This document shows positions 4,380 to 63,003 of a stretch of DNA of 64,000 nucleotides, piece by piece (the stretch's first letter is position 1; each line of letters begins with the position of its first letter). The stretch spans positions 66,920-130,919 of the forward strand of contig CALOBA010000038.1 of NCBI GenBank assembly GCA_942491465.1, read 5' to 3'. The DNA comes from an uncultured Gammaproteobacteria bacterium (GTDB taxonomy: Bacteria; Pseudomonadota; Gammaproteobacteria; Chromatiales; Chromatiaceae). The notes beneath the pieces were generated by a model. That model was given only the letters and a program-made list of their open reading frames with translations, did not search any database and was not told the DNA's origin. The translations under genes and the position numbers were made by a program.

Positions 4380-4533
4380 CTAGGGCCCCGTTGCGGAAGT
4401 CCCAAGACCGCCGGCATGCCCACTCGGTGCTGTGGGAGCGACTTGCAGTCGCGACTTCCGCGTCGCGGCGGTCGCGATTGCAAATCGCTCCCACAGCTAC
4501 GGGCGGTCTCGGAATTTTCGCGGCAAAGCACTA
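4380..4533 (-). mobile_element. MITE-like palindromic element, family A (diverged copy)
   Basis: Reverse-oriented homolog of 27496-27650, 37462-37616 and 53382-53536. Carries the core CTGTGGGAGCGA..TCGCGAC...GTCGCGA..TCGCTCCCACAG. Ends in CTAG / CTAAG. Confidence 0.75.
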
Positions 4534-14083: not shown

Positions 14084-14267
<184 letters not shown>

Positions 14268-14302
14268 CCTCGCGGCCTCCGACGTCATCCGGCGCAAAGC
14301 AA

Positions 14303-19513: not shown

Positions 19514-19968
<455 letters not shown>

Positions 19969-20077: not shown

Positions 20078-20351
<274 letters not shown>

Positions 20352-20402
20352 CGCAGCGCATCCACCAATCGCCGTCGGTGGATGCGCTGCGCTTAATCCA
20401 CC
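20352..20402. repeat. REP-type palindrome (right part); its left arm, 20068-20081, is split off by the MITE
   Basis: CGCAGCGCATCCACC-N10-GGTGGATGCGCTGCGCTTAATCCACCC. Joining 20068-20081 to 20352 rebuilds GGGTGGATAAGCGCAGCGCATCCACC, the mirror of the right arm. Similar units at 22738-22765 and 27678-27711. Confidence 0.8.
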
Positions 20403-22734: not shown

Positions 22735-23610
22735 AAGGGTGGATAAGCGCAGCACATCCACCGCCGGCGCTGGCGCACCGCTGCGGAAGTCCTGAGACCG
22801 TTCCCAACCTCACCTCGCCTGCTGACCCGTGTCGGCCTGGAGGTCGACACTCCCGGGTCGAAACTCCCTCGCCGACGCCCCCGCCGCGGACCGCATTGGA
22901 AGAAGCGGCCGGGTGCCCCCGGGAGGGTCGCCCTCCAGGGCGACCCGTATTCGCCGCGGACGGCGAACGGCATCAGGACCTCTGCATCCAAGGCGATTGC
23001 CGCTCGAAGATGCGCCCGGAAGGGTACAGCAATCCGTCACCGAAACGCCATGCAGTTGGAGCCACGGCCCGCCGCGAAGCACCAGGCCGGCTTGGTAGTG
23101 GAGGTCTTCCTGCCAGCGCACCTAGGCGCGGCGCTCGGTCTCGGGGAGCTTCATGATGTCCAGCTTGGTCTCGGCCTCGCCGGGGTGCTCGACCAGGGTC
23201 TTGGACAATGCCGTTAAGTTAAGCCGTGGGAGCGGTTTCCAGCCGCGACGCTCTGCGCGCGAGCCGAGTCGCGGCTTGAAGCCGCTCCCACAGGTGCCGC
23301 CGGTCTCGTCAGTTTCGCGGCAAAGCCCTAGGCTGTCCAAGTCCGTCGATCCAGCCGACCATCCTCCGCCTGGCATTTGGCTTTTCGCCTACGGGGCGAT
23401 TGCCGGAAGAAGCACGCACCGGTACACCGCTTGCTTACGGCAGGCCGGCTGAGGCTCGGTGTCCGGGCAGCCCTTTCGGCGCGTCGGGGACGATCGCTAC
23501 TTTTTGGAACTCCGCAACACGCGAAAGACACGGAAGGGTTCAGCGGCGAGCCACGGGGGGACTGATGTATCCTTGGGCCTGCGTCCCATCCTGTATTTCG
23601 GTCCTAACCG
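22735..23610. repeat. ~0.9-kb intergenic patchwork of REP/MITE fragments
   Basis: Contains a REP unit (22738-22765), a segment homologous to 30250-30362, a family-D unit (23206-23293), a solo family-A terminus (TTCGCGGCAAAGCCCTAG about 23313-23331) and family-C terminus-like GGCGATTGCCG motifs. Confidence 0.7.
23206..23293 (+). repeat. REP-like palindromic unit, family D
   Basis: CAATGCCGTTAAGTTAAGCCGTGGGAGCGG.TTCCAGCCGCGAC...GTCGCGGCTTGAAGCCGCTCCCAC. Second copy at 30363-30446. Confidence 0.8.
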
Positions 23611-24576: not shown

Positions 24577-27431
<2,855 letters not shown>

Positions 27432-27495: not shown

Positions 27496-27650
27496 CTAGT
27501 GCTTTGCCGCGAAAATTCCGAGACCGCCCGCAGCTGTGGGAGCGATTTGCAATCGCGACCGCCGCGACGCGGAAGTCGCGACTGCAAGTCGCTCCCACAG
27601 CACCGAGTGGGCATGCCGGCGGTCTTGGGACTTCCGCAGTGGTGCACTAG
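27496..27650 (+). mobile_element. MITE-like palindromic element, family A
   Basis: 155 bp, CTAG at both ends (CTAGTGC...GCACTAG). Near-identical to 37462-37616 and 53382-53536. Central near-perfect palindrome. Confidence 0.85.
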
Positions 27651-27751: not shown

Positions 27752-27893
27752 CCCTCAAACGCAACAACTCAGGCGCTCAAACGCAACAGCTTCTGGCGCG
27801 CGGGCAACCGCCTGTCGGTAAGCTCCCGCGATGGGGCCACGCTTGCGACCCAAGCGCAAACGCTCGCGCCCACCAAGACGCATCACCCATGAC
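27752..27893 (+). promoter_or_regulatory. conserved upstream module of PEP-CTERM gene 1 (candidate promoter/operator)
   Basis: About 140 bp paralogous to 29086-29224. The first ~72 nt are almost identical, including a 13-bp direct repeat CTCAAACGCAACA spaced 22 bp (27754 and 27776). Confidence 0.35.
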
Positions 27894-28094
27894 CGAGGCG
27901 CCGACGCCCGTTCTTGCTCGTGCCGGGGCAGAGCCCCGGCACGCCGTCTTGGCGGCTCTGCCGCCGGTGCGCGAGCGTGCGCTGCTCCGCGGCGGATCGG
28001 CGGCAGAGCCGCCAAGATCCGGTACCGAGGCGGAGCCTCGGCACCAGTGCCCAATCGGTCTCCTTCAAACCCATCCACAACCGAGGTGATCACC

Positions 28095-28826
28095 GTGAAA
28101 CCAACGTCTCTCGCGCTGTTCCTGTTGACCCTGCTACCTATTGCCGGGCAGGGAGCAATCGTTGCGAACTATACCTTCACCAACGGTGTTTCGAGCAGCG
28201 ACACCGAGCCCCTGACCACCGCGGGGGATTTCCTGAGCCAAGCGACGGGCACCTTTGCCAGCGAGTTTGGCGTGCTTGGCACCCCGGCAGGCGCGAGTAG
28301 CCAAGCCGATGCGTGGAATGCGCGCGCCAACCAGAATGCCACCAGCAGCTGGTTCGACTTCACCCTCGCCCTTGCGCCCGAGACCAGCCAGGTCAGCTTC
28401 AGCTCCCTCGACTTCACCGCCTATGTCTTTCATACCCTCGGCCTCACCACCGCGTTCAACTACAACCTCTACTGGGATGTGGACAGCTTTACCGACCCGA
28501 TCGCCTCTGCGACAGGCCCGAGCATCTCCGGCGCTGCTAATACCTCCGATAATGCCAGCCAAGCGCTGAGCTTCGACCTATCCGCGCTACCCGCCCAAAC
28601 GACGGACCTAACCTTCCGCTTAGATCCGGTCTTCGCAACGGGCTCCAGCACGAACGGCGGCGGCGCCGTCGAAACCAGTCAGCGTGGCGGCGCCGTGGAC
28701 AACGTCGTTCTCAACGCAACGGTGACGGCGTCCGTGGTCCCGTTGCCGCCGACCATCCTCCTGCTCGCGGCGGGCGGCCTGGCGCTCGCGGCCAGGCAAC
28801 GGGTCGGGCGCCGGTGCCGGGGCTAA
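28095..28826 (+). CDS. PEP-CTERM sorting-domain secreted protein
   Basis: GTG 28095 preceded by GAGGTG. Signal peptide KPTSLALFLLTLLPIAGQG. C-terminus VPLPPTILLLAAGGLALAARQR gives a PEP-like motif + TM + basic tail. Confidence 0.7.
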   Translation: MKPTSLALFLLTLLPIAGQGAIVANYTFTNGVSSSDTEPLTTAGDFLSQATGTFASEFGVLGTPAGASSQADAWNARANQNATSSWFDFTLALAPETSQVSFSSLDFTAYVFHTLGLTTAFNYNLYWDVDSFTDPIASATGPSISGAANTSDNASQALSFDLSALPAQTTDLTFRLDPVFATGSSTNGGGAVETSQRGGAVDNVVLNATVTASVVPLPPTILLLAAGGLALAARQRVGRRCRG

Positions 28827-28951: not shown

Positions 28952-29070
28952 CTACGCTCAAGCGCTGCAAACGCGACCGGCGCGAAGTCGTTGTCGTGGC
29001 GATCGTTGTCCGGTGCGGACCCGACAACGACAACGACAACGACAACGAGCAGACTTGCCGGCGACACTTA
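28952..29070 (+). repeat. hexanucleotide-hairpin element (subfamily 2, short)
   Basis: GTCGTTGTCGTGGCGATCGTTGTC - loop - (GACAAC)4 GAG. The right flank GCAGACTTGCCGGCGACACTTAGGCGC resembles the right flank at 53348-53373. Confidence 0.7.
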
Positions 29071-29252: not shown

Positions 29253-29828
29253 ATGATCAACACAAGAACCTCCTCCCTGCGTCGCCACGCCCTCGCCGCC
29301 GGAGCGGCACTGCTGCTGGGCTCCGCCGCGGCCCCCGCGGCGATTGTCACCATCGACTTTCCCGCCGGCAACGTGGAGACCTTCGATCTCAGTGCCGGCG
29401 GCGCGACCGTGTCGTTCTTCAATGTGGCGCCGCGCTCGAACTTCCTCAGGAACCCCAGCGGGCTGGGATTTGGCCCGACCGGAGTCAACACTACGTCGTT
29501 CGACTTCGTCTTCGATCAAGACGTCGAACTCCTCTCCTACACCGGGTCGATCGGTTCCGGCACGCCAAACTTCGATATCAACGGACTGGGTGTCTCGTCC
29601 TTGGGCACTGCAGCGGCCAGCGGCGACTTCGCGGGGCAGCCACTGTCGCTGACCAGTGGAGAGACCTACACCCTATCCCTCAGTTCCGGCGGGAGTGGTT
29701 TCCGTTACTTCAAGAGCTGGACGTTCGATGTCGACACGGGGCCGACGCCGGCCCCTGCGCCCGCTCCGCTGGCGCTCCTGCTGACCGGCGTGGGCGCGCT
29801 CGGCTGGCTGCGGCGTCGCCGCAGCTAG
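29253..29828 (+). CDS. PEP-CTERM-like sorting-domain secreted protein
   Basis: Start MINTRTSSLRRHALAAGAALLLGSAAAPA. C-terminus PAPAPLALLLTGVGALGWLRRRRS (Pro-rich motif + TM + Arg tail). ORF opens at 29211. Confidence 0.6.
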   Translation: MINTRTSSLRRHALAAGAALLLGSAAAPAAIVTIDFPAGNVETFDLSAGGATVSFFNVAPRSNFLRNPSGLGFGPTGVNTTSFDFVFDQDVELLSYTGSIGSGTPNFDINGLGVSSLGTAAASGDFAGQPLSLTSGETYTLSLSSGGSGFRYFKSWTFDVDTGPTPAPAPAPLALLLTGVGALGWLRRRRS

Positions 29829-29930
29829 TCAAGGTTCAGAAACAAGTGGTGCAGACGCAACCACGAAATGGCCAATCAAAAGGTTCAGCGAGCGGGCGTC
29901 TGCGCCACTTGTTTCTGAACCGATCCTAAG
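29825..29930 (+). mobile_element. MITE, family B
   Basis: 27-bp terminal inverted repeats GGTTCAGAAACAAGTGG(T/C)GCAGACGC. CTAG / CTAAG at the ends. The TAG stop of the upstream gene lies within the left CTAG. Confidence 0.85.
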
Positions 29931-30250: not shown

Positions 30251-30362
30251 GCTGGCGCGCCTGGAGGTCGACGCTCCCGGGTCGACGCTTCCGGGTCGAC
30301 ACTCCCAAGGCCGACGCTCCCGCCGTGGAGCGCATTGGACGGAGTGGCCGGGGGTTCCCGGG

Positions 30363-30446
30363 CAATGCCGTTAAGTTAAGCCGTGGGAGCGGCTTCCAGC
30401 CGCGACGGTCGCCGCGCGAGCCGAGTCGCGGCTTGAAGCCGCTCCC
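30363..30446 (+). repeat. REP-like palindromic unit, family D
   Basis: Homolog of 23206-23293. Confidence 0.8.
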
Positions 30447-30471
30447 CCAAAGCGCTCCCATCGCTCGCTAA

Positions 30472-37461: not shown

Positions 37462-37616
37462 CTAGTGCTTTGCCGCGAAAATTCCGAGACCGCCCGCAGC
37501 TGTGGGAGCGATTTGCAATCGCGACCGCCGCGACGCGGATGTCGCGACTGCAAGTCGCTCCCACAGCACCGAGTGGGCATGCCGGCGGTCTTGGGACTTC
37601 CGCAGCGGTGCACTAG
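37462..37616 (+). mobile_element. MITE-like palindromic element, family A
   Basis: CTAG-bounded 155-bp copy, near-identical to 27496-27650. Confidence 0.85.
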
Positions 37617-37763
<147 letters not shown>

Positions 37764-38772: not shown

Positions 38773-38810
38773 CTAAGTCAAGGTCCAGAAACAAGTGGTG
38801 CAAGCCAACC
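38773..38810 (+). mobile_element. solo end of a family-B MITE
   Basis: CTAAGTCAAGGTCCAGAAACAAGTGGTGCAAGCC matches only the left terminus of family B. Confidence 0.6.
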
Positions 38811-40326: not shown

Positions 40327-41229
40327 TCAAGCCGGGAACACCCCGGTGGACAGATAACGGTCGCCGCGATCGCAGATGATGACAACGATGACGGCGTCGG
40401 GCATGCGCTCGTCGACCTCGCGGGCCAGCCTCAGGGCCGCGGCCACGGCGCCGCCGGAGGAGATGCCGGCGAAGATGCCCTCGCGGGTCGCCAGGGCGCG
40501 GGTGGTCTCCTCGGCCTCGGCCTGGGAGACGTCGATGATCCGATCCACGCGACTGGCGTCGTAGATCTTGGGCAGATACGCCTCCGGCCAGCGACGGATG
40601 CCGGGGATGCTCGAGCCCTCCTCCGGCTGCACGCCGACGATCTGCACCGCCGGGCTCTGTTCCTTCAGATAGCGGCTGGTGCCCATGATGGTGCCGGTGG
40701 TGCCCATGGCGCTGACGAAGTGGGTCACGCGCCCGTCGGTGTCGCGCCAGATCTCCGGGCCGGTGGACTCGACATGGGCCTCGGGGTTGTCCGGGTTCGA
40801 GAACTGGTCCAGGCGCAGCCCCTCGCCGGCTGCCTCCAGCTCGCGGGCCAGATCGATGGCCGCCTCCATGCTGCCCTCGCGCGGGGTCAGCCGGATCTCG
40901 GCGCCGTAGGCGGCCATGGCCTGGCGGCGCTCGATACTCATGTTCTCGGGCATGATCAGCAGCATCCGATAGCCCTTGATGGCCGCGGCCATGGCCAGCG
41001 CGATGCCGGTATTGCCGCTGGTGGCCTCGATCAGGGTATCGCCGGGGCGGATGGCACCCCGCGCCTCGGCCCGCCGGATCATGCTCAACGCCGCCCGGTC
41101 CTTCACCGAGCCCGCCGGGTTGTTGCCCTCCAGCTTGGCCAGTACGGTCACCTTCAAGTCGCCGGTGAGCCGTTGCAGCCGCACCAGCGGCGTGTTGCCC
41201 ACCAGGGATTCAATCGTCGAAAACGCCAT
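40327..41229 (-). CDS. cysM: cysteine synthase B (PLP-dependent)
   Basis: Start MAFSTIESLVGNTPLVRL (ATG 41229). KLEGNNPAGSVKDRAA (PLP lysine), SGNTGIALA and GTTGTIMG motifs. Confidence 0.9.
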   Translation of the reverse strand: MAFSTIESLVGNTPLVRLQRLTGDLKVTVLAKLEGNNPAGSVKDRAALSMIRRAEARGAIRPGDTLIEATSGNTGIALAMAAAIKGYRMLLIMPENMSIERRQAMAAYGAEIRLTPREGSMEAAIDLARELEAAGEGLRLDQFSNPDNPEAHVESTGPEIWRDTDGRVTHFVSAMGTTGTIMGTSRYLKEQSPAVQIVGVQPEEGSSIPGIRRWPEAYLPKIYDASRVDRIIDVSQAEAEETTRALATREGIFAGISSGGAVAAALRLAREVDERMPDAVIVVIICDRGDRYLSTGVFPA

Positions 41230-41404
41230 GCCGATGCTGTGCGGCCCAAGCCGCTGCCCCCCACGTATGCTTGCAAAATGAGGACGCGATTGTGCACCAG
41301 CGCAGGCCATCGAGAAAGCGGCGTTTGCCGACGGCGCTCACCGACCAGCCCCCAGCCCCCCCCGACACTCCAGCAGCAAAGCCCCATCAAGTACCGCATC
41401 CACC

Positions 41405-42868
41405 GCCTGCGGCGGCCCGCCGCTGCTCCCCGGAGCGGGGGCGTCCCGCCCCCGACTAGCATGGGGGGAGTCCCGCCCCCCAGCACAGCACGTCGGCGAG
41501 ACGCCGACGATCCCAGTCAGCGGCGGGACGCCGCTGCTCCCCGGAGCGGGGGCGTCCCGCCCCCGACTAGCATGGGGGAAGTCTCACCCCCCAGCACAGC
41601 ACCTCGACAAGACGCCGACGACCCCAGTCAGCGGCGGGACGCCGCTGCTCCCCGGAGCGGGGGGCGTCCCGCCCCCGACTAGCATGGGGGGAGTCTCACC
41701 CCCCAGCACAGCACCTCGACAAGACGCCGACGATCCCAGTCAGCGGCGGGACGCCGCTGCTCCCCGGAGCGGGGGCGTCCCGCCCCCGACTAGCATGGGG
41801 GGAGTCTCACCCCCCAGCACAGCGCACCTCGGCAAAACGCCGACGATCCCAGTCAGCGGCGGGACGCCGCTGCTCCCCGGAGCGGGGGCGTCCCGCCCCC
41901 GACTAGCATGGGGGAAGTCTCGCCCCCCAGCACAGCACGTCGGCGAGACGCCGACGATCCCAGTCAGCGGCGGGACGCCGCTGCTCCCCGGAGCGGGGGC
42001 GTCCCGCCCCCGACTAGGATGGGGGGAGTCTCCCCCCCCCAGCACAGCGCACGTCGGCGAGACGCCGACGATCCCCGTCAGCGGCGGGACGCCGCTGCTC
42101 CCCGGAGCGGGGGCGTCCCGCCCCCGACTAGCATGTCGGGAGTCTCGCCCCCCCAGCACAGCACGTCGGCGGGACGCCGACGATCCCAGTCAGCGGCGGG
42201 ACGCCGCTGCTCCCCGGAGCGGGGGCGTCCCGCCCCCGACCAGCATGGGGGGAGTCTCCCCCCCCAGCACAGCGCACGTCGGCGAGACGCCGACGATCCC
42301 AGTCAGCGGCGGGACGCCGCTGCTCCCCGGAGCGGGGGCGTCCCGCCCCCGACTAGGATGGGGGGAGTCCCGCCCCCCAGCACAGCACGTCGGCGAGACG
42401 CCGACGATCCCAGTCAGCGGCGGGACGCCGCTGCTCCCCGGAGCGGGGGCGTCCCGCCCCCGACTAGCATGGGGGGAGTCTCACCCCCCAGCACAGCACG
42501 TCGGCGAGACGCCGACGATCCCAGTCAGCGGCGGGACGCCGCTGCTCCCCGGAGCGGGGGCGTCCCGCCCCCGACTAGCATGGGGGGAGTCTCGCCCCCC
42601 AGCACAGCACGTCGGCAAAACGCCGACGATCCCAGTCAGCGGCGGGACGCCGCTGCTCCCCGGAGCGGGGGCGTCCCGCCCCCGACTAGCATGGGGGGAG
42701 TCTCGCCCCCCAGCACAGCACGTCGGCAAAACGCCGACGATCCCAGTCAGCGGCGGGACGCCGCTGCTCCCCGGAGCGGGGGCGTCCCGCCCCCGACTAG
42801 CATGGGGGGAGTCTCGCCCCCCAGCACAGCACGTCGGCGAGACGCCGACGATCCCAGTCAGCGGCGGG
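41405..42868 (+). repeat. tandem array, 13 copies of a 111-114 bp hairpin-rich unit
   Basis: The GACTAG(C/G)ATGG landmark recurs at 41454, 41565, 41677, 41788, 41901, 42012, 42126, 42238, 42351, 42462, 42573, 42684 and 42795. Each unit holds 3-4 GC-rich hairpins. Confidence 0.95.
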
Positions 42869-43147
42869 GCGAGGAGGAGCCGGCCAGCGGTCTTGATTCG
42901 TTCGCCAGGTTTGGCCAGATCCTCCAAACCGCAATCGGTAGGGGCACTGCACTTGAGTTCTGCCCCCCCTGGTTGATCTCGGCGCATCGCTGCTTGGGCC
43001 TGATGCTGCTCGGCTGGTGGCAGAACACCGCATCCCAGCGCTTTACATCGACGAGCGTCCGACCTAACGTGCCTGTTTGCCGATCCCGCCCGCAGGCCGC
43101 CGATCCCATCGGTCGCCGCCCACGGGCACCCTAGGAGCATTACCCTC

Positions 43148-43891
43148 ATGTCCGTTAATCTGACCATCCTGTTCGACAACGAGCCCGGCCGGCCCGATCT
43201 GGAGAGCCTCTGGGGCTTTGCCGCGCTGATCGAGGCCCGGGGCCAGCGCATCCTGTTCGACAGCGGCAGCAACGGCCGCGTGCTGCTGCGCAACATGGAG
43301 CGCCTGGAGATCGACCCGGCGACGCTCGATCTGATGTTCTTCTCCCACGCCCACTGGGACCACATCGGCGGGCTGGATTCGGTGCTGGAGCTGGCGCCGC
43401 AGGCCACGGTGGTGGTGCACAGCGGCTTCTCGAAGCATCTGCTCGCCGATCTGGAGCGGCTCTGTGCCCGGCTGATCGTGGTCGATACGGCGCCGCTGGA
43501 GATCTCGCCGGGGCTGCTCAGCACCGGCCTGCTGCCGTCGGAGCCGCCGGAGCACGCGCTGATCATCGACGTGGACGACCCCGAGGCGGGCGACACCGCC
43601 ACCGCCCTGGTCACCGGCTGCGCCCACCCCGGCATCGCCGAGCTGACCGCGCGCGCCGCCGAGGTGGCGGGCCGGCCGGTCACCTGGGCCATCGGCGGCT
43701 TCCATCTGATGTATTCCGACCAGAGCGCCATCGCCGCCACCGCCGACCAGCTCCGCGCCCAAGGCGTGCGGCGGCTGCTCGCCACCCACTGCACCGGACC
43801 CGCCGCCCGCAGCATGCTGGCCGCGCGCTGGGGCATGGACTTCATCGACGCCGGTCTGGGCCAGAGCGTCCGCCTGCTGCCCGTCGGCTGA
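43148..43891 (+). CDS. MBL-fold metallo-hydrolase
   Basis: 247 aa. FFSHAHWDHIGGL (HxHxDH) plus downstream His/Asp ligands (TGCAHPG, GGFHL). Confidence 0.8.
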   Translation: MSVNLTILFDNEPGRPDLESLWGFAALIEARGQRILFDSGSNGRVLLRNMERLEIDPATLDLMFFSHAHWDHIGGLDSVLELAPQATVVVHSGFSKHLLADLERLCARLIVVDTAPLEISPGLLSTGLLPSEPPEHALIIDVDDPEAGDTATALVTGCAHPGIAELTARAAEVAGRPVTWAIGGFHLMYSDQSAIAATADQLRAQGVRRLLATHCTGPAARSMLAARWGMDFIDAGLGQSVRLLPVG

Positions 43892-43916
43892 ACACCAACC
43901 CTGGAGAATCCGACCC

Positions 43917-45044
43917 ATGACCGCCCCCGATCCCGCCCGCCCCAGCCCCGACGCCGTCGTCGACCGCGCGGTGGACATCGCCGTCCGCCTCGGCCTGATC
44001 GCGGCAATGCTGACCTTCTGCTTCATGATCGTGCGCCCCTTCCTGGTGCCCGTGGCCTGGGCCGTCATCATCGCCGTCGCCGTCTATCCCGGTTACCAAA
44101 AGCTGTTGCGCCGGACAGGCGGGCGCCGCAAGCTCGCATCGGTGCTGTTCCTGCTGTTGGCGCTGGTGGCGCTGATCCTGCCGGTGGCCATGCTCAGCGG
44201 CACCATGGTCCAGGGCGGCGAGCATATCGCCCATGCCCTTGAGCAGGGCGCGCTGCATGTGCCGCCGGCGCCGGACGCATTGACGCAGATCCCGTTGATC
44301 GGCACCCCGGTGCATGATTTCTGGAACCAGGCATCGTCCAATCTCGAAGCCGCGCTGAAGCTGATCGAGCCGCAGATCCGGGCCTTCGGCACCTGGGCGC
44401 TGTCGCTGGCGGCCTCCGCCGGCTTGGCCATGCTGCACCTGCTGGCGGCCATCATCATCGCCGCCGTGCTGCTGGCCAAGGGCGAGTCCGCCGCCCGCAC
44501 GACGCTGGAGCTGGCCGAGCGCGTGGCCGGCCAGCGCGGTCGCCAGCTCGCCGAGCTGTCCGAGGCGGTGGTGCGCAGCGTCTCCCGCGGCATCCTCGGC
44601 GTGGCGCTGATCCAGTCGCTGCTGGCCGGCATCGGCATGCTCGTCGCCGGCGTGCCGGGGGCCGGACTCTGGGCGCTGGTCGCGCTGCTGCTGAGCACGA
44701 TCCAGGTCGGCGTCTTCCCGGTGATGATCCCGGCGCTGATCTACCTGTTCTATACCGGCAGCACCACCACGGCGGTGCTGTTCCTGATCTGGACGGTGAT
44801 CGTCGGCTCGCTGGACAACATCCTCAAGCCTTTGTTGCTCGGTCGTGGCGTCGAGGTGCCGATGGCGGTGATCTTTGTCGGTGCCATCGGCGGCTTCCTC
44901 ACCGCCGGCATCATCGGGCTGTTCCTCGGCGCCGTGGTGCTGGTGCTCGGCTACGAGCTGTTCCTGGCCTGGCTGCGGATGGAGCGGAAGGCGGAAGCCG
45001 CCGCGGCCGCGGCGAGCGCACAACCGTCCGACGGCAAGCCGTGA
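43917..45044 (+). CDS. AI-2E family transporter (PerM/UPF0118)
   Basis: 375 aa, ~8 TM. FMIVRPFLVPVAWAVIIAVAVYP and LDNILKPLLLGRGVEVP motifs. Confidence 0.85.
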   Translation: MTAPDPARPSPDAVVDRAVDIAVRLGLIAAMLTFCFMIVRPFLVPVAWAVIIAVAVYPGYQKLLRRTGGRRKLASVLFLLLALVALILPVAMLSGTMVQGGEHIAHALEQGALHVPPAPDALTQIPLIGTPVHDFWNQASSNLEAALKLIEPQIRAFGTWALSLAASAGLAMLHLLAAIIIAAVLLAKGESAARTTLELAERVAGQRGRQLAELSEAVVRSVSRGILGVALIQSLLAGIGMLVAGVPGAGLWALVALLLSTIQVGVFPVMIPALIYLFYTGSTTTAVLFLIWTVIVGSLDNILKPLLLGRGVEVPMAVIFVGAIGGFLTAGIIGLFLGAVVLVLGYELFLAWLRMERKAEAAAAAASAQPSDGKP

Positions 45045-45088: not shown

Positions 45089-45824
<736 letters not shown>

Positions 45825-49272: not shown

Positions 49273-49379
49273 CCTAGGGATCGATTCAAAAACAAGTGGT
49301 GCAGACGCCCGCTCGCTGAACCTTTTGATTGGCCGTTTCGTGGTTGCGTCTGCACCACTTGTTTCTGAACCTTGACTAG
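49273..49379 (-). mobile_element. MITE, family B
   Basis: Reverse-oriented copy. CTAGG direct repeat at both ends (49273-49277 and 49375-49379). Confidence 0.85.
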
Positions 49380-53141: not shown

Positions 53142-53370
<229 letters not shown>

Positions 53371-53381
53371 GCGCACGGGTA

Positions 53382-53536
53382 CTAGTGCTTTGCCGCGAAA
53401 ATTCCGAGACCGCCCGCAGCTGTGGGAGCGATTTGCAATCGCGACCGCCGCGACGCGGAAGTCGCGACTGCAAGTCGCTCCCACAGCACCGAGTGGGCAT
53501 GCCGGCGGTCTTTGGACTTCCGCAGCGGTGCACTAG
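53382..53536 (+). mobile_element. MITE-like palindromic element, family A
   Basis: CTAG-bounded 155-bp copy, near-identical to 27496-27650. Confidence 0.85.
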
Positions 53537-61103: not shown

Positions 61104-61206
61104 GTCAAGGTTCAAAAACAAGTGGTGCAGACGCAACCAAAAAACGGCCAATCAAAAGGTTCAGCGAGCGGGCGTCTGCGCCACTTGTTTCTGAACCGAT
61201 CCTAAG
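61100..61206 (+). mobile_element. MITE, family B
   Basis: CTAAG direct repeats at 61100-61104 and 61202-61206. The nadK TAA stop (61101-61103) lies inside the left repeat. Confidence 0.85.
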
Positions 61207-61221
61207 CCGGGCCTTAACGCC

Positions 61222-62901
61222 ATGCTAAGCCACATCTTCATCAAGGATATGGTGATCGTCAGCCGGCTGGAGCTCGACCTCGGGCCCGGTATGACGGCCC
61301 TGACCGGCGAGACCGGCGCCGGCAAATCCATCCTCATCGACGCCCTCGGCCTGGCCCTCGGCGACAAGGCCGATGCGAGCATGATCCGCACCGGCTGCGA
61401 CCGCGCCGAGGTCTCCGCCAGCTTCGACCTGGCCCGCTGCCCGGCGGCGCTGGAGTGGCTGCGCGAGCAGGCCCTCGACGACGGCGACGACTGTCTGCTG
61501 CGCCGGGTGCTGGTGCGCGGCGGGCGCGCCCGCGCCTTCATCAACGGCCAGGCCGCCAGCAACGCCCAGCTCCAGGCCCTCGGCGACCTGCTGGTGGACA
61601 TCCACGGCCAGCACGCGCACCAGTCGCTGCTGCGCCCGGCGGCGCAGATCGGCCTGCTCGACGGCTACGGCGGGCTGGCCGAGCAGGCGGCGGCCGTTGC
61701 CCGCGCCTTTCAGCAATTCCGCTCCCTAGATCGGCGCTGGCAGGCGTTGACCTCGGCCCGTGACGAGCGCGCCGCGCGCATGGACCTGCTGGCGTTCCAG
61801 GTCGGCGAGCTGGATGAGCTGGCCCTGGCCGACGGCGAGCTCGACGCCCTGGACGCCGAGCAGCGCCGGCTCGCCAACCTCGACGGCCTGCAGGGCACCA
61901 CGGCAAGCCTGGTGGATCTGCTCTACGACGGCGAGCCGGCCCTGCGCGACCAGCTCGGCCACGCCGCCGCCGAACTCAGCGGACTGACCCGGCTCGACCC
62001 CAAACTCACCGAGACCGCAGAACTGCTGGAAGCGGCCACCGTTCAGGTGGCAGAGGCGGCCGGCAACCTGCGCCAATACCTCGATGTCCTGGAACTGGAC
62101 CCGGCGCGGCTGGCGGAGGTCGAGGCCCGTCTCGGGCGCATCCACGAGCTGGGGCGCAAGTACCGCATCCTGCCCGAGCAGATCCCGGACAGCCTGGAGC
62201 AGCTGCGCGCCGAGCTGGCCGAGCTGGAACGCGCCGACGCCGACCTGGGCAGCCTGGAGCGCGACCGCGAGGCGGCCCGCGCCAGCTTTATGGAACAGGC
62301 CACAAAGCTCAGCAGCGCCCGCCGCGACGCCGCCGCCCGGCTCGCGGACACGGTCACCGAGGCCATGCAGAGCCTCGGCATGGCCGGCGGTCGTCTCGAT
62401 GTTGCCGTGGAGACCGGCGATGAGGCATCCGCCGGCAGTCAGGGGCTGGACCGCATCGGCCTTCAAGTCAGCGCCAACCCCGGCCAGCCGCTGCAGCCCC
62501 TGGCCAAGGTCGCCTCCGGCGGTGAGCTCTCGCGCATCAGCCTCGCCATCCAGGTCGCCACCGCCGAATGCGGCAGCGTGCCGACGCTGGTCTTCGACGA
62601 GGTGGACGTGGGCATCGGCGGGCGGGTCGCCGAGATCGTCGGCCGCCTGCTGCGCCGCCTGGGCGATGCCCGTCAGGTGCTGTGCGTCACCCACCTGCCC
62701 CAGGTCGCCGCCCAGGGCTACGCCCAGCTACGCGTGGCCAAGCAGGCGGTGGACGGGCAGACCTTTACCGACATCACCGCCCTGTCCGCCGCCGAGCGCA
62801 TTGACGAGATCGCCCGCATGCTCGGCGGCACCGAGATCACGGCCACCACCCGCGCCCATGCCGAGGAGATGCTCGGCGGCAACGGCCAAGCGTCCGCTTA
62901 G
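61222..62901 (+). CDS. recN: DNA repair protein RecN
   Basis: 559 aa. Walker A LTGETGAGKSIL, long coiled-coil, ASGGELSRISLAIQ signature and Walker B LVFDEVDVGIGG. Confidence 0.95.
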   Translation: MLSHIFIKDMVIVSRLELDLGPGMTALTGETGAGKSILIDALGLALGDKADASMIRTGCDRAEVSASFDLARCPAALEWLREQALDDGDDCLLRRVLVRGGRARAFINGQAASNAQLQALGDLLVDIHGQHAHQSLLRPAAQIGLLDGYGGLAEQAAAVARAFQQFRSLDRRWQALTSARDERAARMDLLAFQVGELDELALADGELDALDAEQRRLANLDGLQGTTASLVDLLYDGEPALRDQLGHAAAELSGLTRLDPKLTETAELLEAATVQVAEAAGNLRQYLDVLELDPARLAEVEARLGRIHELGRKYRILPEQIPDSLEQLRAELAELERADADLGSLERDREAARASFMEQATKLSSARRDAAARLADTVTEAMQSLGMAGGRLDVAVETGDEASAGSQGLDRIGLQVSANPGQPLQPLAKVASGGELSRISLAIQVATAECGSVPTLVFDEVDVGIGGRVAEIVGRLLRRLGDARQVLCVTHLPQVAAQGYAQLRVAKQAVDGQTFTDITALSAAERIDEIARMLGGTEITATTRAHAEEMLGGNGQASA

Positions 62902-63003
62902 GATCGGTTCAGAAACAAGTGGTGCAGACGCCCGCTCGCTAAACCTTTTGACTGGCCGTTTCGTGGTTGCGCCTGCACCACTTGTTTCTGAATCTTGACT
63001 TAG
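62897..63003 (-). mobile_element. MITE, family B
   Basis: CTTAG direct repeats at 62897-62901 and 62999-63003. Contains the recN TAG stop and the TAA stop of the convergent gene. Confidence 0.85.

Follow-up and report, generated by a model that had tools for sequence, protein, structure and literature searches.

Ordered tandem arrays of REP- or REPIN-containing units have been described in Pseudomonas fluorescens SBW25 (Bertels & Rainey 2011, PMC3116915). These clusters are extragenic and consist of nearly identical tandem units, built of short GC-rich palindromes with their flanks and including inverted doublets that give a long hairpin (REPINs). Their periods are ~110-184 bp, and arrays of 12 REPs were reported there (PMC3116915). 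The BIME-2 and atypical BIMEs of Escherichia coli and the REP clusters of Xanthomonas and Stenotrophomonas (PMC2817692, PMC3333891) are intergenic as well, with regularly spaced imperfect palindromes and a tandem basic module. The MIRUs of Mycobacterium tuberculosis (PMC3635867) are intergenic, non-coding and lineage-specific tandem repeats with units of tens of bp or more. Here, we have analyzed a stretch of 64,000 nucleotides from an uncultured gammaproteobacterium of the Chromatiaceae (the window), in which these traits recur in a single array with a similar period, 111 bp. Thirteen head-to-tail, hairpin-rich units of ~111 bp form a real, non-coding block of 1.46 kb. It does not look like a gene, a known RNA or a transposon, and it resembles a locally amplified minisatellite of the REP/BIME type. 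We regard as the probable explanation an orphan non-coding minisatellite of REP-like palindromes that was amplified in place.

Organization of the array and variation between its units

Tandem Repeats Finder (TRF) reports one array, at 41409-42868, with a period of 111, 13.1 copies, 95% matches and 1% indels, in agreement with the 13-copy tandem array of a preliminary description made from the sequence. The spacings given there (111, 112, 111, 113, 111, 114, 112, 113, 111, 111, 111 and 111 bp) are identical to the start-to-start distances on CCCGAC[CT]AG. The boundary landmark itself was slightly overstated: GACTAG(C/G)ATGG was said to recur 13 times, and we find 11 exact matches to GACTAGSATGG (0.01 expected), while the two other boundaries deviate from it (unit 7 has GACTAGCATGTCGG and unit 8 has GACCAGCATGG). 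Similarly, CTAG is present at 12 of the 13 unit boundaries and not at every one. The parts of the array are the following.

41407-42868, no strand: tandem array (from TRF, unit cuts, unit alignments and covariance-model matches)
41407-41456: partial edge unit
41457-42797: 12 full units of 111-114 nt each
42798-42868: truncated last unit

The 12 full units score 112-134 bits with a covariance model of the unit. Both ends of the array lie in the same mid-unit phase, with GCGGCGG at 41409 and again at 42862-42868. A higher-order period of 450 nt scores about the same in TRF as that of 111 nt (94% against 95% matches); we rejected it as weak, since few units are alike at that lag, the likeness being limited to units 1, 5 and 9 and to units 4 and 8.

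Each unit holds four related 19-nt palindromes, with an 8-bp stem, a 3-nt loop and the core GGCG-NNN-CGCC, placed 27-29 bp apart. All the hairpins named per unit in the preliminary description are present, and a single unit folds as DNA at -42.9 kcal/mol (z = -6.4). We take unit 10 as the reference.

42465-42575, plus strand: reference unit (unit 10), used for palindrome coordinates, core-motif count and folds
42471-42489: palindrome P1, GGGGGGAG-TCT-CACCCCCC
42499-42517: palindrome P2, CGTCGGCG-AGA-CGCCGACG
42526-42544: palindrome P3, CAGCGGCG-GGA-CGCCGCTG
42555-42573: palindrome P4, CGGGGGCG-TCC-CGCCCCCG
42523-42576: inverted doublet of a 26-nt REP-like element (AGTCRGSGGCGGGACGCCSCYGCTCC) forming a long hairpin, with arms at 42523-42548 (plus) and 42551-42576 (minus)

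From P1 to P4 the loop orientation is - + + -, and the core GGCGRGACGCC occurs four times per unit. P3 and P4 make up the REPIN-like inverted doublet, whose long hairpin has a folding energy of -23.1 kcal/mol as DNA (z = -4.3). The pattern of its 26-nt element has 24 matches in the window, 12 on the plus strand and 12 on the minus strand, where 0.01 would be expected; all are within the array and none outside. Palindromes of the 8-3-8 type are concentrated in the same way: 49 lie in the array (33 per kb) and 72 in all the remaining DNA of the window (1.15 per kb); for perfect ones the counts are 32 and 5. Even the stretches of 8-10 nt between the palindromes are themselves repeated in every unit.

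Variation between units is unevenly distributed. It had been ascribed mainly to the first hairpin, and the CGTCGGCG hairpin indeed varies, but so do the G6/C6 hairpin and the spacer. Sixteen of the 17 variable columns fall within the first 62 of the 115 alignment columns (nominal binomial P ~4e-4, with the boundary chosen post hoc and all units from one genome). Across the 12 full units the doublet is invariant save for one G insertion in unit 2, and substitutions in it are confined to the partial edge unit, while hairpins P1 and P2 tolerate disruptive changes. The invariance of one half and the variation of the other could reflect selection on the doublet, conversion tracts centered there or a mutational bias.

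Could the array be an artifact, with one or few units expanded by the assembler? Units 11 and 12 are identical, and with a shift of 111 the sequence matches itself exactly over as much as 219 bp (from 42509), a stretch uncountable with short reads, so that the number of units at the end of the array (the last three or four) depends on reads longer than ~330 nt. In addition, the source is represented only once in the protein collection (a cluster of 1), on a contig of 137 kb. Yet ten of the 12 full units each have a sequence of their own, and substitutions are common to non-adjacent units in mosaic patterns. Assembler loops do not produce such patterns, which indicate that the copies are real and exchanging. 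The contig also passes through other long repeats, such as a 440-bp hexamer array at 19516-19955, and its genes are intact at full length (AcrB, for example, over model positions 1-1019 of 1021), so base-level quality looks good. We consider an expansion by the assembler extremely doubtful.

Flanking genes and lineage-specific insertion

The array lies among chromosomal housekeeping genes and, as previously noted, fills most of a divergent intergenic region of ~1.9 kb; this region (41230-43147) has 1918 bp, of which the array takes up 1460. The region and its two genes are arranged as follows.

40327-41229, minus strand: cysM-like PLP enzyme gene, 300 aa (open reading frame [ORF]; relatives 77-79% identical), transcribed away from the array
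41241-41319, minus strand: conserved block adjoining cysM, containing GATTGTGCACCAGCG (aligned with contigs L081 and L083)
41320-41406, no strand: left unique flank of the lineage-specific insertion, absent from syntenic relatives and not repeated in the window
42869-43038, no strand: right unique flank of the lineage-specific insertion, absent from syntenic relatives and not repeated in the window
43039-43130, plus strand: conserved block adjoining the MBL-fold gene (from the alignment of relatives)
43148-43891, plus strand: MBL-fold hydrolase gene, 247 aa (ORF; homologues with PF00753/PF12706), transcribed away from the array

The identity of 77-79% is that of the best CysM relatives among the matches listed in species representatives, and the cysM orthologue of L083 carries PF00291. 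The gene order is kept in four metagenomic contigs (L081, L082, L083 and L084), which stand for three distinct relatives, L083 and L084 being nearly identical. Their spacers are ~210-520 bp long and contain no unit-like sequence. The alignment of L083 with the window runs at 86% identity up to 41319 and resumes at 43039, with ~28 bp of L083 in place of 1719 bp; the break points of L081 are identical to those of L083. In L085, the third contig belonging to the L083 type, the gap between called genes is likewise 152 bp. By these alignments, the two conserved blocks beside the genes are separated by a lineage-specific insertion of ~1.7 kb that includes the array. The closest relative of the MBL-fold gene (84% at the amino acid level) is in L086, a contig that ends 321 bp upstream of the gene, with unrelated sequence there, and speaks neither for nor against an array in its lineage.

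The two blocks presumably contain the regulatory sequences of their genes. The cysM-side block, 80% identical to L081 754-827 and situated inside the 86% alignment to L083, is presumed from its conservation to be the cysM promoter or leader. The MBL-side block is presumed to be the promoter of the MBL-fold gene: CGCTTTACATCG is invariant there in four lineages, and TTTACA-17 nt-TAACGT is found at 43042-43070, a pair that our consensus scan did not call. Several ORFs drawn over the array (41684-42976, 41908-43134 and 42481-44007) are spurious and should not be annotated as genes.

Coding, RNA and transposition as alternatives

An in-frame coding repeat had been named in the preliminary description as a finding that would overturn its reading. 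The array is not a coding repeat. Although 111 is a multiple of 3, the frame is lost in the units of 112, 113 and 114 nt. The GC content of the array is 0.72-0.78 at all codon positions in the six frames, against ~0.7/0.5/0.9 in the real genes of the window, and Pfam gave no match above cut-offs over the array.

The suggestion of a multi-copy structured RNA locus was not supported. Tandem small-RNA gene arrays exist. NsiR1 of Nostoc reportedly has a 12-repeat organization, each repeat is said to have its own promoter and terminator, and its RNA has reportedly been detected. By analogy, the unit or the whole array would be transcribed and processed to hairpin RNAs of ~110 nt, and the array does resemble NsiR1 in its roughly twelve tandem units, which lie upstream of a gene for a protein. 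A single unit folds strongly as RNA (-73.3 kcal/mol, z = -6.6 for the plus strand; z = -4.9 for the minus strand), and the long hairpin is invariant. However, the palindromes fold equally on either strand, as a symmetry at the DNA level predicts. Promoter, terminator and covariation were not found in the array. A consensus scan of 41000-43400 revealed no promoter-like (sigma-70-like) site anywhere and no terminator-like site, i.e., hairpin plus T run, within the array, and the unit lacks a T run. Since both flanking genes point outward, there would be no read-through into the array either. In a comparison of low power, among copies of one genome that are 95% alike, we found compensatory changes in 0 of 35 predicted pairs, and wherever a paired position varies the pairing is lost. 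Unit 2 has lost hairpin P2 altogether (z = -1.9). Rfam has no match in the array at gathering thresholds, and a permissive search gave only sub-threshold matches, to eukaryotic miRNA-precursor hairpins and to an archaeal snoRNA model. Furthermore, the array is absent from all relatives examined. We thus hold an RNA locus to be quite improbable.

Transposition is suggested by the unit boundaries. Elements of the IS630 family use TA as their insertion site, which is duplicated, and CTAG is reported to be preferred (PMC2170065; Tenzen & Ohtsubo 1991, by its title). The array could then be a pile-up of a 109-nt MITE of the IS630/Tc1 type, formed as one copy after another entered the TA in the CTAG at the element's own end, much as the preliminary description proposed when it envisaged self-insertion into this tetranucleotide. 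CTAG at 12 of the 13 junctions would agree with such a process, and the window holds a TA-flanked MITE family with terminal inverted repeats of ~30 nt. Against it, the unit has no terminal inverted repeats (score 7 versus 5.5 +/- 1.1 for shuffles, equalled by 74 of 500), and its ends match better in direct orientation (score 11) than inverted. The array starts and ends at the mid-unit GCGGCGG and not at TA or CTAG. No transposase, RAYT (Y1 transposase) or partition protein was found among the 30 larger ORFs of the window that were scanned. Solitary units, sought in the 64 kb by BLAST, pattern search and covariance model, were not found, whereas the other REP-like and MITE families have 4-6 copies each in the same 64 kb.

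Searches beyond the array agree with this absence of relatives. The covariance model had no match above 18.4 bits outside the array in the window. One BLAST similarity of 54 nt at 28645-28695 was rejected as chance, as it is part of a coding ORF (27831-28826) and reaches only 18 bits with the covariance model. An exact 23-mer of the invariant hairpin (GGGACGCCGCTGCTCCCCGGAGC) had 0 matches in genome, metagenome and viral contig collections. A second probe, from the spacer between P2 and P3 (CGACGAYCCCMGTCAGCGGCGG), had 8 matches in metagenomes, which we took as chance: none extends more than 4 nt past the probe, seven look like ordinary coding-type sequence and one lies across a start codon. 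The two unit-derived probes hence yielded no real copy in the genome, metagenome and viral collections, and three units compared with plasmids by blastn had no match. Given these results, a pile-up of MITEs appears very improbable.

Other classes of repeats were considered and rejected. In a CRISPR array the repeats would be separated; here units abut, there are no unique spacers, and no cas genes are among the ORFs scanned. Inspection by eye revealed no GTTRRRY core of an integron attC in the unit (nor is there an integrase among the ORFs scanned) and no boxes matching oriC/DnaA-box or parS-like readings, with no par genes among these ORFs.

Origin, possible function and relation to known palindrome clusters

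The preliminary description had also mentioned a satellite or BIME-like array, and this suggestion is supported by the non-coding, satellite-like organization and the clustered palindromes. As in minisatellites (VNTRs), the repeats are non-coding and head to tail, with a unit in the range of tens to ~100 bp or more and a local origin. How could such an array arise? A foreign segment of ~370 bp would have landed between the conserved gene-proximal blocks of a short divergent intergenic region, bringing four related 19-nt palindromes, two of them as a REPIN-like inverted doublet; no donor was found in the window or in the collections searched. A 111-bp stretch of this segment would then have multiplied in situ to ~13 copies. 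The likely route is replication slippage or unequal sister-chromatid exchange, seeded by the GCGGCGG microhomology and helped by the hairpin-forming, internally repetitive sequence. Unequal recombination, proposed earlier as one way of growth, fits the mid-unit phase shared by both ends, as array boundaries of this kind are consistent with tandem duplication. It also fits the long hairpin having diverged only in the edge unit, a pattern consistent with homogenization of the interior. Point mutations, small indels and exchange between units may afterwards have generated the present mosaic. If the array acts at all, it would do so at the DNA level, as a 1.46-kb spacer of cruciform-capable palindromes on either side of which both promoters stay beside their own genes. 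We take it to be, most likely, neutral or almost neutral. What counts against this explanation is that the doublet is invariant, because pure neutrality of a satellite does not predict uneven variation.

That invariance could instead point to a functional cis element at the DNA level. Negative supercoils accumulate between divergent promoters (twin-domain model), and the array lies exactly between two outward-facing conserved gene-proximal blocks. The ~50 palindromes, and above all the invariant doublet, might have been selected as cruciform sinks for these supercoils, insulating cysM from the MBL-fold gene, or as binding sites for gyrase, IHF or another nucleoid protein. For example, strong binding of DNA gyrase has been reported for BIME-2, and binding of IHF for BIME-1 (PMC2817692). 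The doublet half is invariant while P1 and P2 accept disruptive changes, as this alternative would have it. Still, relatives manage with a palindrome-free spacer of ~210 bp, no candidate binding protein was found nearby among the window ORFs scanned, and beyond the array the core motif is no commoner than expected by chance, with 12 matches there and 16 expected over the entire window. The invariance itself comes from one genome with a boundary chosen post hoc. We therefore consider a cis element unlikely. A stronger version, in which the array is a selected regulatory device, seems distinctly unlikely: gyrase or a nucleoid protein would load or cleave at the 54-nt doublet, or the doublet would serve as a supercoil sink; the array would buffer or uncouple the two promoters, and its copy number could tune them. 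A function of the doublet as a unit-length hairpin RNA of a new family is still less likely than such a device.

A minisatellite amplified in place would make this locus a natural experiment. The "before" state, a spacer of ~210 bp, is known from relatives, both promoter-proximal blocks are intact, and the palindromes are outside any detectable dispersed family. The array hence sets apart two routes to BIME-like structures, local amplification and transposition. If selection proved to be the cause of the doublet's invariance, the locus would also be a tractable test case for palindrome arrays as topological insulators between divergent genes.

The comparison with known systems places the array close to the REP-type clusters, with clear differences. 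It shares with REPs, REPINs and BIMEs the GC-rich imperfect palindromes and the inverted doublet (P3/P4). In contrast, neither GTAG nor GTGG, the REP head tags, occurs on either strand of the unit, and where such families are dispersed in tens to more than 100 copies per genome, there is no copy outside the array in the 64-kb window. The REP families of the SBW25 arrays are dispersed in hundreds of copies and linked to RAYTs, whereas the palindromes of this array lack a GT(A/G)G head, and the larger ORFs scanned include no RAYT. The palindromes of BIMEs alternate strictly, and the REP families from which they come have more than 100 copies across the genome; the palindromes of the array follow the order - + + - at 27-29 bp and, unlike those of BIMEs, differ in their outer stems, the family being at one locus within the window and the collections searched. 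The GTAG- and CGTC-tagged REP superfamilies (Di Nocera et al. 2013, PMC3733652) also have 8-bp GC-rich stems and short loops, and one palindrome of the array (P2) starts with CGTC. However, the tag is unpaired in these superfamilies, while in the array CGTC pairs with GACG as part of the stem. The loops are of 3 nt instead of the 4-5 nt of the CGTC families (PMC3733652), and the array has neither the CCA tail nor the A/T at the first stem positions.

A GTAG-headed tandem cluster in a metagenome-assembled genome of the Thiohalomonadaceae (contig L080, 3924-4321; 3.3 copies of 121 nt) illustrates what the ordinary kind looks like in this bacterial group. The MIRUs, which like this array are presumed to vary in copy number by slippage or recombination, are loci of a family interspersed around the genome (PMC3635867), while the unit described here has been found at one locus so far and has a strongly palindromic sequence. 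Among 1.4 Mb of other bacterial loci, mostly of Proteobacteria, the largest long-period array has 3.3 copies. The array is one more case of intergenic regions gaining and amplifying palindromic repeats, unusually large and clean: its ~50 palindromes in 13 units exceed the largest REPIN cluster of SBW25, which comprises four REPINs in just over 700 bp.

The array and its repeat unit

Our analysis confirms the tandem array that the preliminary description had placed between a cysM-like gene and a gene for an MBL-fold hydrolase. Tandem Repeats Finder (TRF) reports 13.1 copies of period 111 with 95% matches, and the array occupies 1460 bp of an intergenic span of 1918 bp. Cutting at CCCGAC[CT]AG returned exactly the spacings already described (111, 112, 111, 113, 111, 114, 112, 113, 111, 111, 111 and 111). 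The landmark GACTAGSATGG had been reported at 13 sites; it is exact at 11 junctions (0.01 expected) and altered at two (GACTAGCATGTCGG in unit 7, GACCAGCATGG in unit 8). Similarly, CTAG, said to mark every boundary, is found at 12 of the 13 junctions and is missing from one.

Features of the array and its neighbours
Start 41229, minus strand: cysM-like gene, left neighbour
41409-42868: tandem array
Start 43148, plus strand: MBL-fold hydrolase gene, right neighbour
P1, first palindrome of the unit: GGGGGGAG-TCT-CGCCCCCC
P2, second: CGTCGGCG-AGA-CGCCGACG
P3, third: CAGCGGCG-GGA-CGCCGCTG
P4, fourth: CGGGGGCG-TCC-CGCCCCCG

Folding one unit gives three hairpins: the RNA of the plus strand reaches -73.3 kcal/mol (z = -6.6), that of the minus strand has z = -4.9, and the DNA reaches -42.9 kcal/mol (z = -6.4). 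The unit contains four related 19-nt palindromes, each with an 8-bp stem, a 3-nt loop and the common core GGCG-NNN-CGCC, whose centres lie 27-29 bp apart and whose loops are oriented - + + -. With their flanks, P3 and P4 repeat a single 26-nt element, AGTCRGSGGCGGGACGCCSCYGCTCC, in opposite orientations, and the pattern of this element has 12 matches per strand in the window, all within the array (0.01 expected). This inverted doublet makes a long hairpin, hence its likeness to a REPIN. Palindromes of the 8-3-8 type with at most one mismatch number 49 in the array (33 per kb) versus 72 in the remaining 62.5 kb (1.15 per kb), and perfect ones 32 versus 5. On the minus strand (41405-42856), a covariance model built on the plus strand of the unit scores 42-67 bits as well, its matches being shifted in phase by ~52 nt. 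Since the unit is pseudo-twofold symmetric, its structure does not reveal its strand.

Insertion between conserved gene-proximal blocks

Metagenomic relatives keep the gene order of the locus: an rlmD-like gene, the cysM-like gene, then the divergent MBL-fold and AI-2E transporter genes. One syntenic contig, L083, gives an 86% alignment with the window up to 41319 and again from 43039, with about 28 bp in place of 1719 bp of the window; its MBL-fold protein belongs to a 78%-identity cluster. A second contig, L081, has both break points of L083, and a third, L082, has a 519-bp spacer of different sequence. None of 35 related loci contains unit-like sequence. The insertion is lineage-specific and comprises the array with unique flanks of 87 bp (left) and 170 bp (right). 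Blocks next to the genes are conserved on both sides, GATTGTGCACCAGCG adjoining cysM and CGCTTTACATCG adjoining the MBL-fold gene (with TTTACA-17-TAACGT at 43042-43070). Judging from this conservation, the presumed promoters of both genes would lie outside the array and face away from it. In the relatives an RNase J-like gene (467 aa in L083) follows the AI-2E transporter gene; the window retains only a remnant (45129-45805), with residues ~1-30, 324-383 and 387-460 detectable and a hexamer-repeat block interrupting it at ~45394-45590.

We think it likely that the array is an orphan palindromic minisatellite. It would have begun with the insertion of some 370 bp of foreign DNA bearing a small cluster of REP-like palindromes, from which a 111-bp stretch would then have been amplified in place, by slippage or by unequal sister-chromatid exchange. 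The product may now be a largely passive and nearly neutral spacer that separates two outward-facing promoters by 1.46 kb of DNA able to form cruciforms.

The array does not encode a repeated protein: units of 112-114 nt put the reading frame out, GC is 0.72-0.78 at every codon position in all six frames (versus about 0.7/0.5/0.9 in the genes of the window), and the long spurious ORFs have no Pfam match above cut-offs. That it could be a tandem locus of structured RNAs, as had been proposed, is quite improbable. Rfam at gathering thresholds has no match anywhere in the window, and a permissive search matched only models of eukaryotic miRNA-precursor hairpins and one of an archaeal snoRNA, all below threshold. 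Scanning 41000-43400 revealed neither a sigma-70-like promoter nor, inside the array, a hairpin-plus-T-run terminator. In the alignment of the 12 full units, none of the 35 predicted pairs shows a compensatory change, every variable paired column being a broken pair, and unit 2 has lost hairpin P2 entirely. These results also exclude a known RNA.

The preliminary description had further suggested self-insertion at CTAG, and a pile-up of MITEs of this kind is very improbable. The 111-nt unit lacks terminal inverted repeats (score 7 versus 5.5 +/- 1.1 in shuffles), and its two ends resemble each other more when read in the same direction; both ends of the array fall mid-unit, at GCGGCGG and not at CTAG. 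The window does hold a MITE family of ~100 nt with terminal inverted repeats of ~30 nt (GTTCAGAAACAAGTGGTGCAGACGC), flanked by TA and often within CTAG or CTAA. Its flanks appear as expected of IS630/Tc1-type elements, which insert at TA (PMC2170065); no transposase was found among the window ORFs scanned.

Variation among copies and dispersal

All 16 variable columns of the 12-unit alignment lie within the first 62 nt, i.e., in P1, the spacer, and the 5' arm and loop of P2 (nominal P ~4e-4, for a boundary picked after the fact). No column of the 53 in the P3-P4 doublet varies among the 12 units, a single G insertion in unit 2 apart; substitutions there are limited to the partial edge unit (41407-41456). 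Units 11 and 12 are identical, and variants are shared by non-adjacent units in a mosaic pattern.

Variants shared among units
C at column 39: units 2-4
A at columns 45 and 47: units 4, 11 and 12
GC insertion: units 4, 6 and 8

Tandem duplication via microhomology, with unequal exchange or conversion afterwards, would account for the phase common to both ends, for the diverged edge copy and for the mosaic interior; a higher-order period of 450 nt in TRF is weak. An assembly artefact is the least probable explanation, since unit-specific, shared substitutions argue for real copies, although a 219-bp exact run makes the count of the last units depend on long reads. The strict invariance of the doublet, against the variable other half of the unit, is not what a purely neutral minisatellite predicts. 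This invariance would favor a selected DNA-level element, with protein-binding sites or a role as a supercoil sink, as might the analogy with BIME-2 elements, for which gyrase binding has been reported (PMC2817692); we regard such an element as unlikely.

Within the 64-kb window, the unit is confined to the array: BLAST and two pattern searches found it nowhere else, nor did a covariance model. The model, built from the 12 full units and run with filters off, scored them at 112-134 bits and its best outside match at 18.4 bits, and the core motif does not rise above background outside the array. Searches for a 23-mer of the invariant hairpin found no exact copy among 185,579 species-representative genomes, among 241 million metagenome records or among viral contigs; a second unit-derived probe gave chance matches only, and a plasmid search with array units gave none. 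The MBL-fold protein of the window is the sole member of its 90%-identity cluster.

Other repeats are dispersed in the window. Hexamer microsatellites, (CGACAA)n / (TCGTTG)n, occur at at least 8 sites (longest 74.7 copies), some within larger repeated blocks (14085-14268 versus 20078-20352, 99-100% match), which suggests a mobile or recombining element carrying them. In units 2 and 3 (41602-41612, 41714-41724), P2 reads CCTCGACAAGA versus the consensus CGTCGGCGAGA; these three substitutions create TCGACAA, the motif of this microsatellite, and may be coincidence or a templated change. Two REP-like palindrome families, CTGTGGGAGCGAYTTGCARTCGCGAC... and GTGGGAGCGGYTTCCAGCCGCGAC..., are unrelated to the array palindromes. 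The ORF at 27831-28826 has no Pfam match, and its end, read by eye, resembles a putative PEP-CTERM sorting signal (VPLPPTILLLAAGGLALAARQR).

Other repeats of the window
14166-14216, 19516-19955, 20159-20300, 26394-26451, 29022-29048, 37666-37762, 45442-45503, 53174-53309: hexamer microsatellites
29828-29927, 49278-49377, 61104-61203, 62901-63000; partial copy near 38776: MITE family
4420-4506, 27524-27610, 37490-37576, 53410-53496; also 23196-23292, 30353-30449: REP-like families

Relation to known repeat systems

The satellite, BIME-like and unequal-recombination readings first proposed all hold. The closest described systems are BIME-2 elements and the ordered tandem REP/REPIN clusters of Pseudomonas fluorescens SBW25, which have periods of ~110-184 bp and up to 12 REPs (PMC3116915); the array works like these, or at least is built like them. 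However, it differs from REPs as they are defined (PMC3733652): the palindromes lack an unpaired head of GT(A/G)G or CGTC, the CGTC that is present being base-paired, and they have 3-nt loops and no CCA tail. Nor is the array dispersed in the 64 kb of the window, in which other repeat families of the genome number 4-6 copies, and no RAYT was found among the 30 larger ORFs scanned there. The ordinary form of such arrays is seen in a Thiohalomonadaceae metagenome-assembled genome (L080, 3924-4321), whose intergenic array of 121 nt x 3.3 copies has a GTAG-headed palindrome in each unit (GTAGGTCACGT...ACGTGAC) and is a typical REP/BIME-type cluster. Among loci from other bacteria totalling 1.4 Mb, only three arrays reach both 40 nt in period and 2.5 copies, and the largest has 3.6 copies. 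With 13 copies, the array is unusual in size and not in kind: it probably belongs to the intergenic palindromic minisatellites, a kind already known, and the strict invariance of its REPIN-like doublet is the one feature that could raise its interest.
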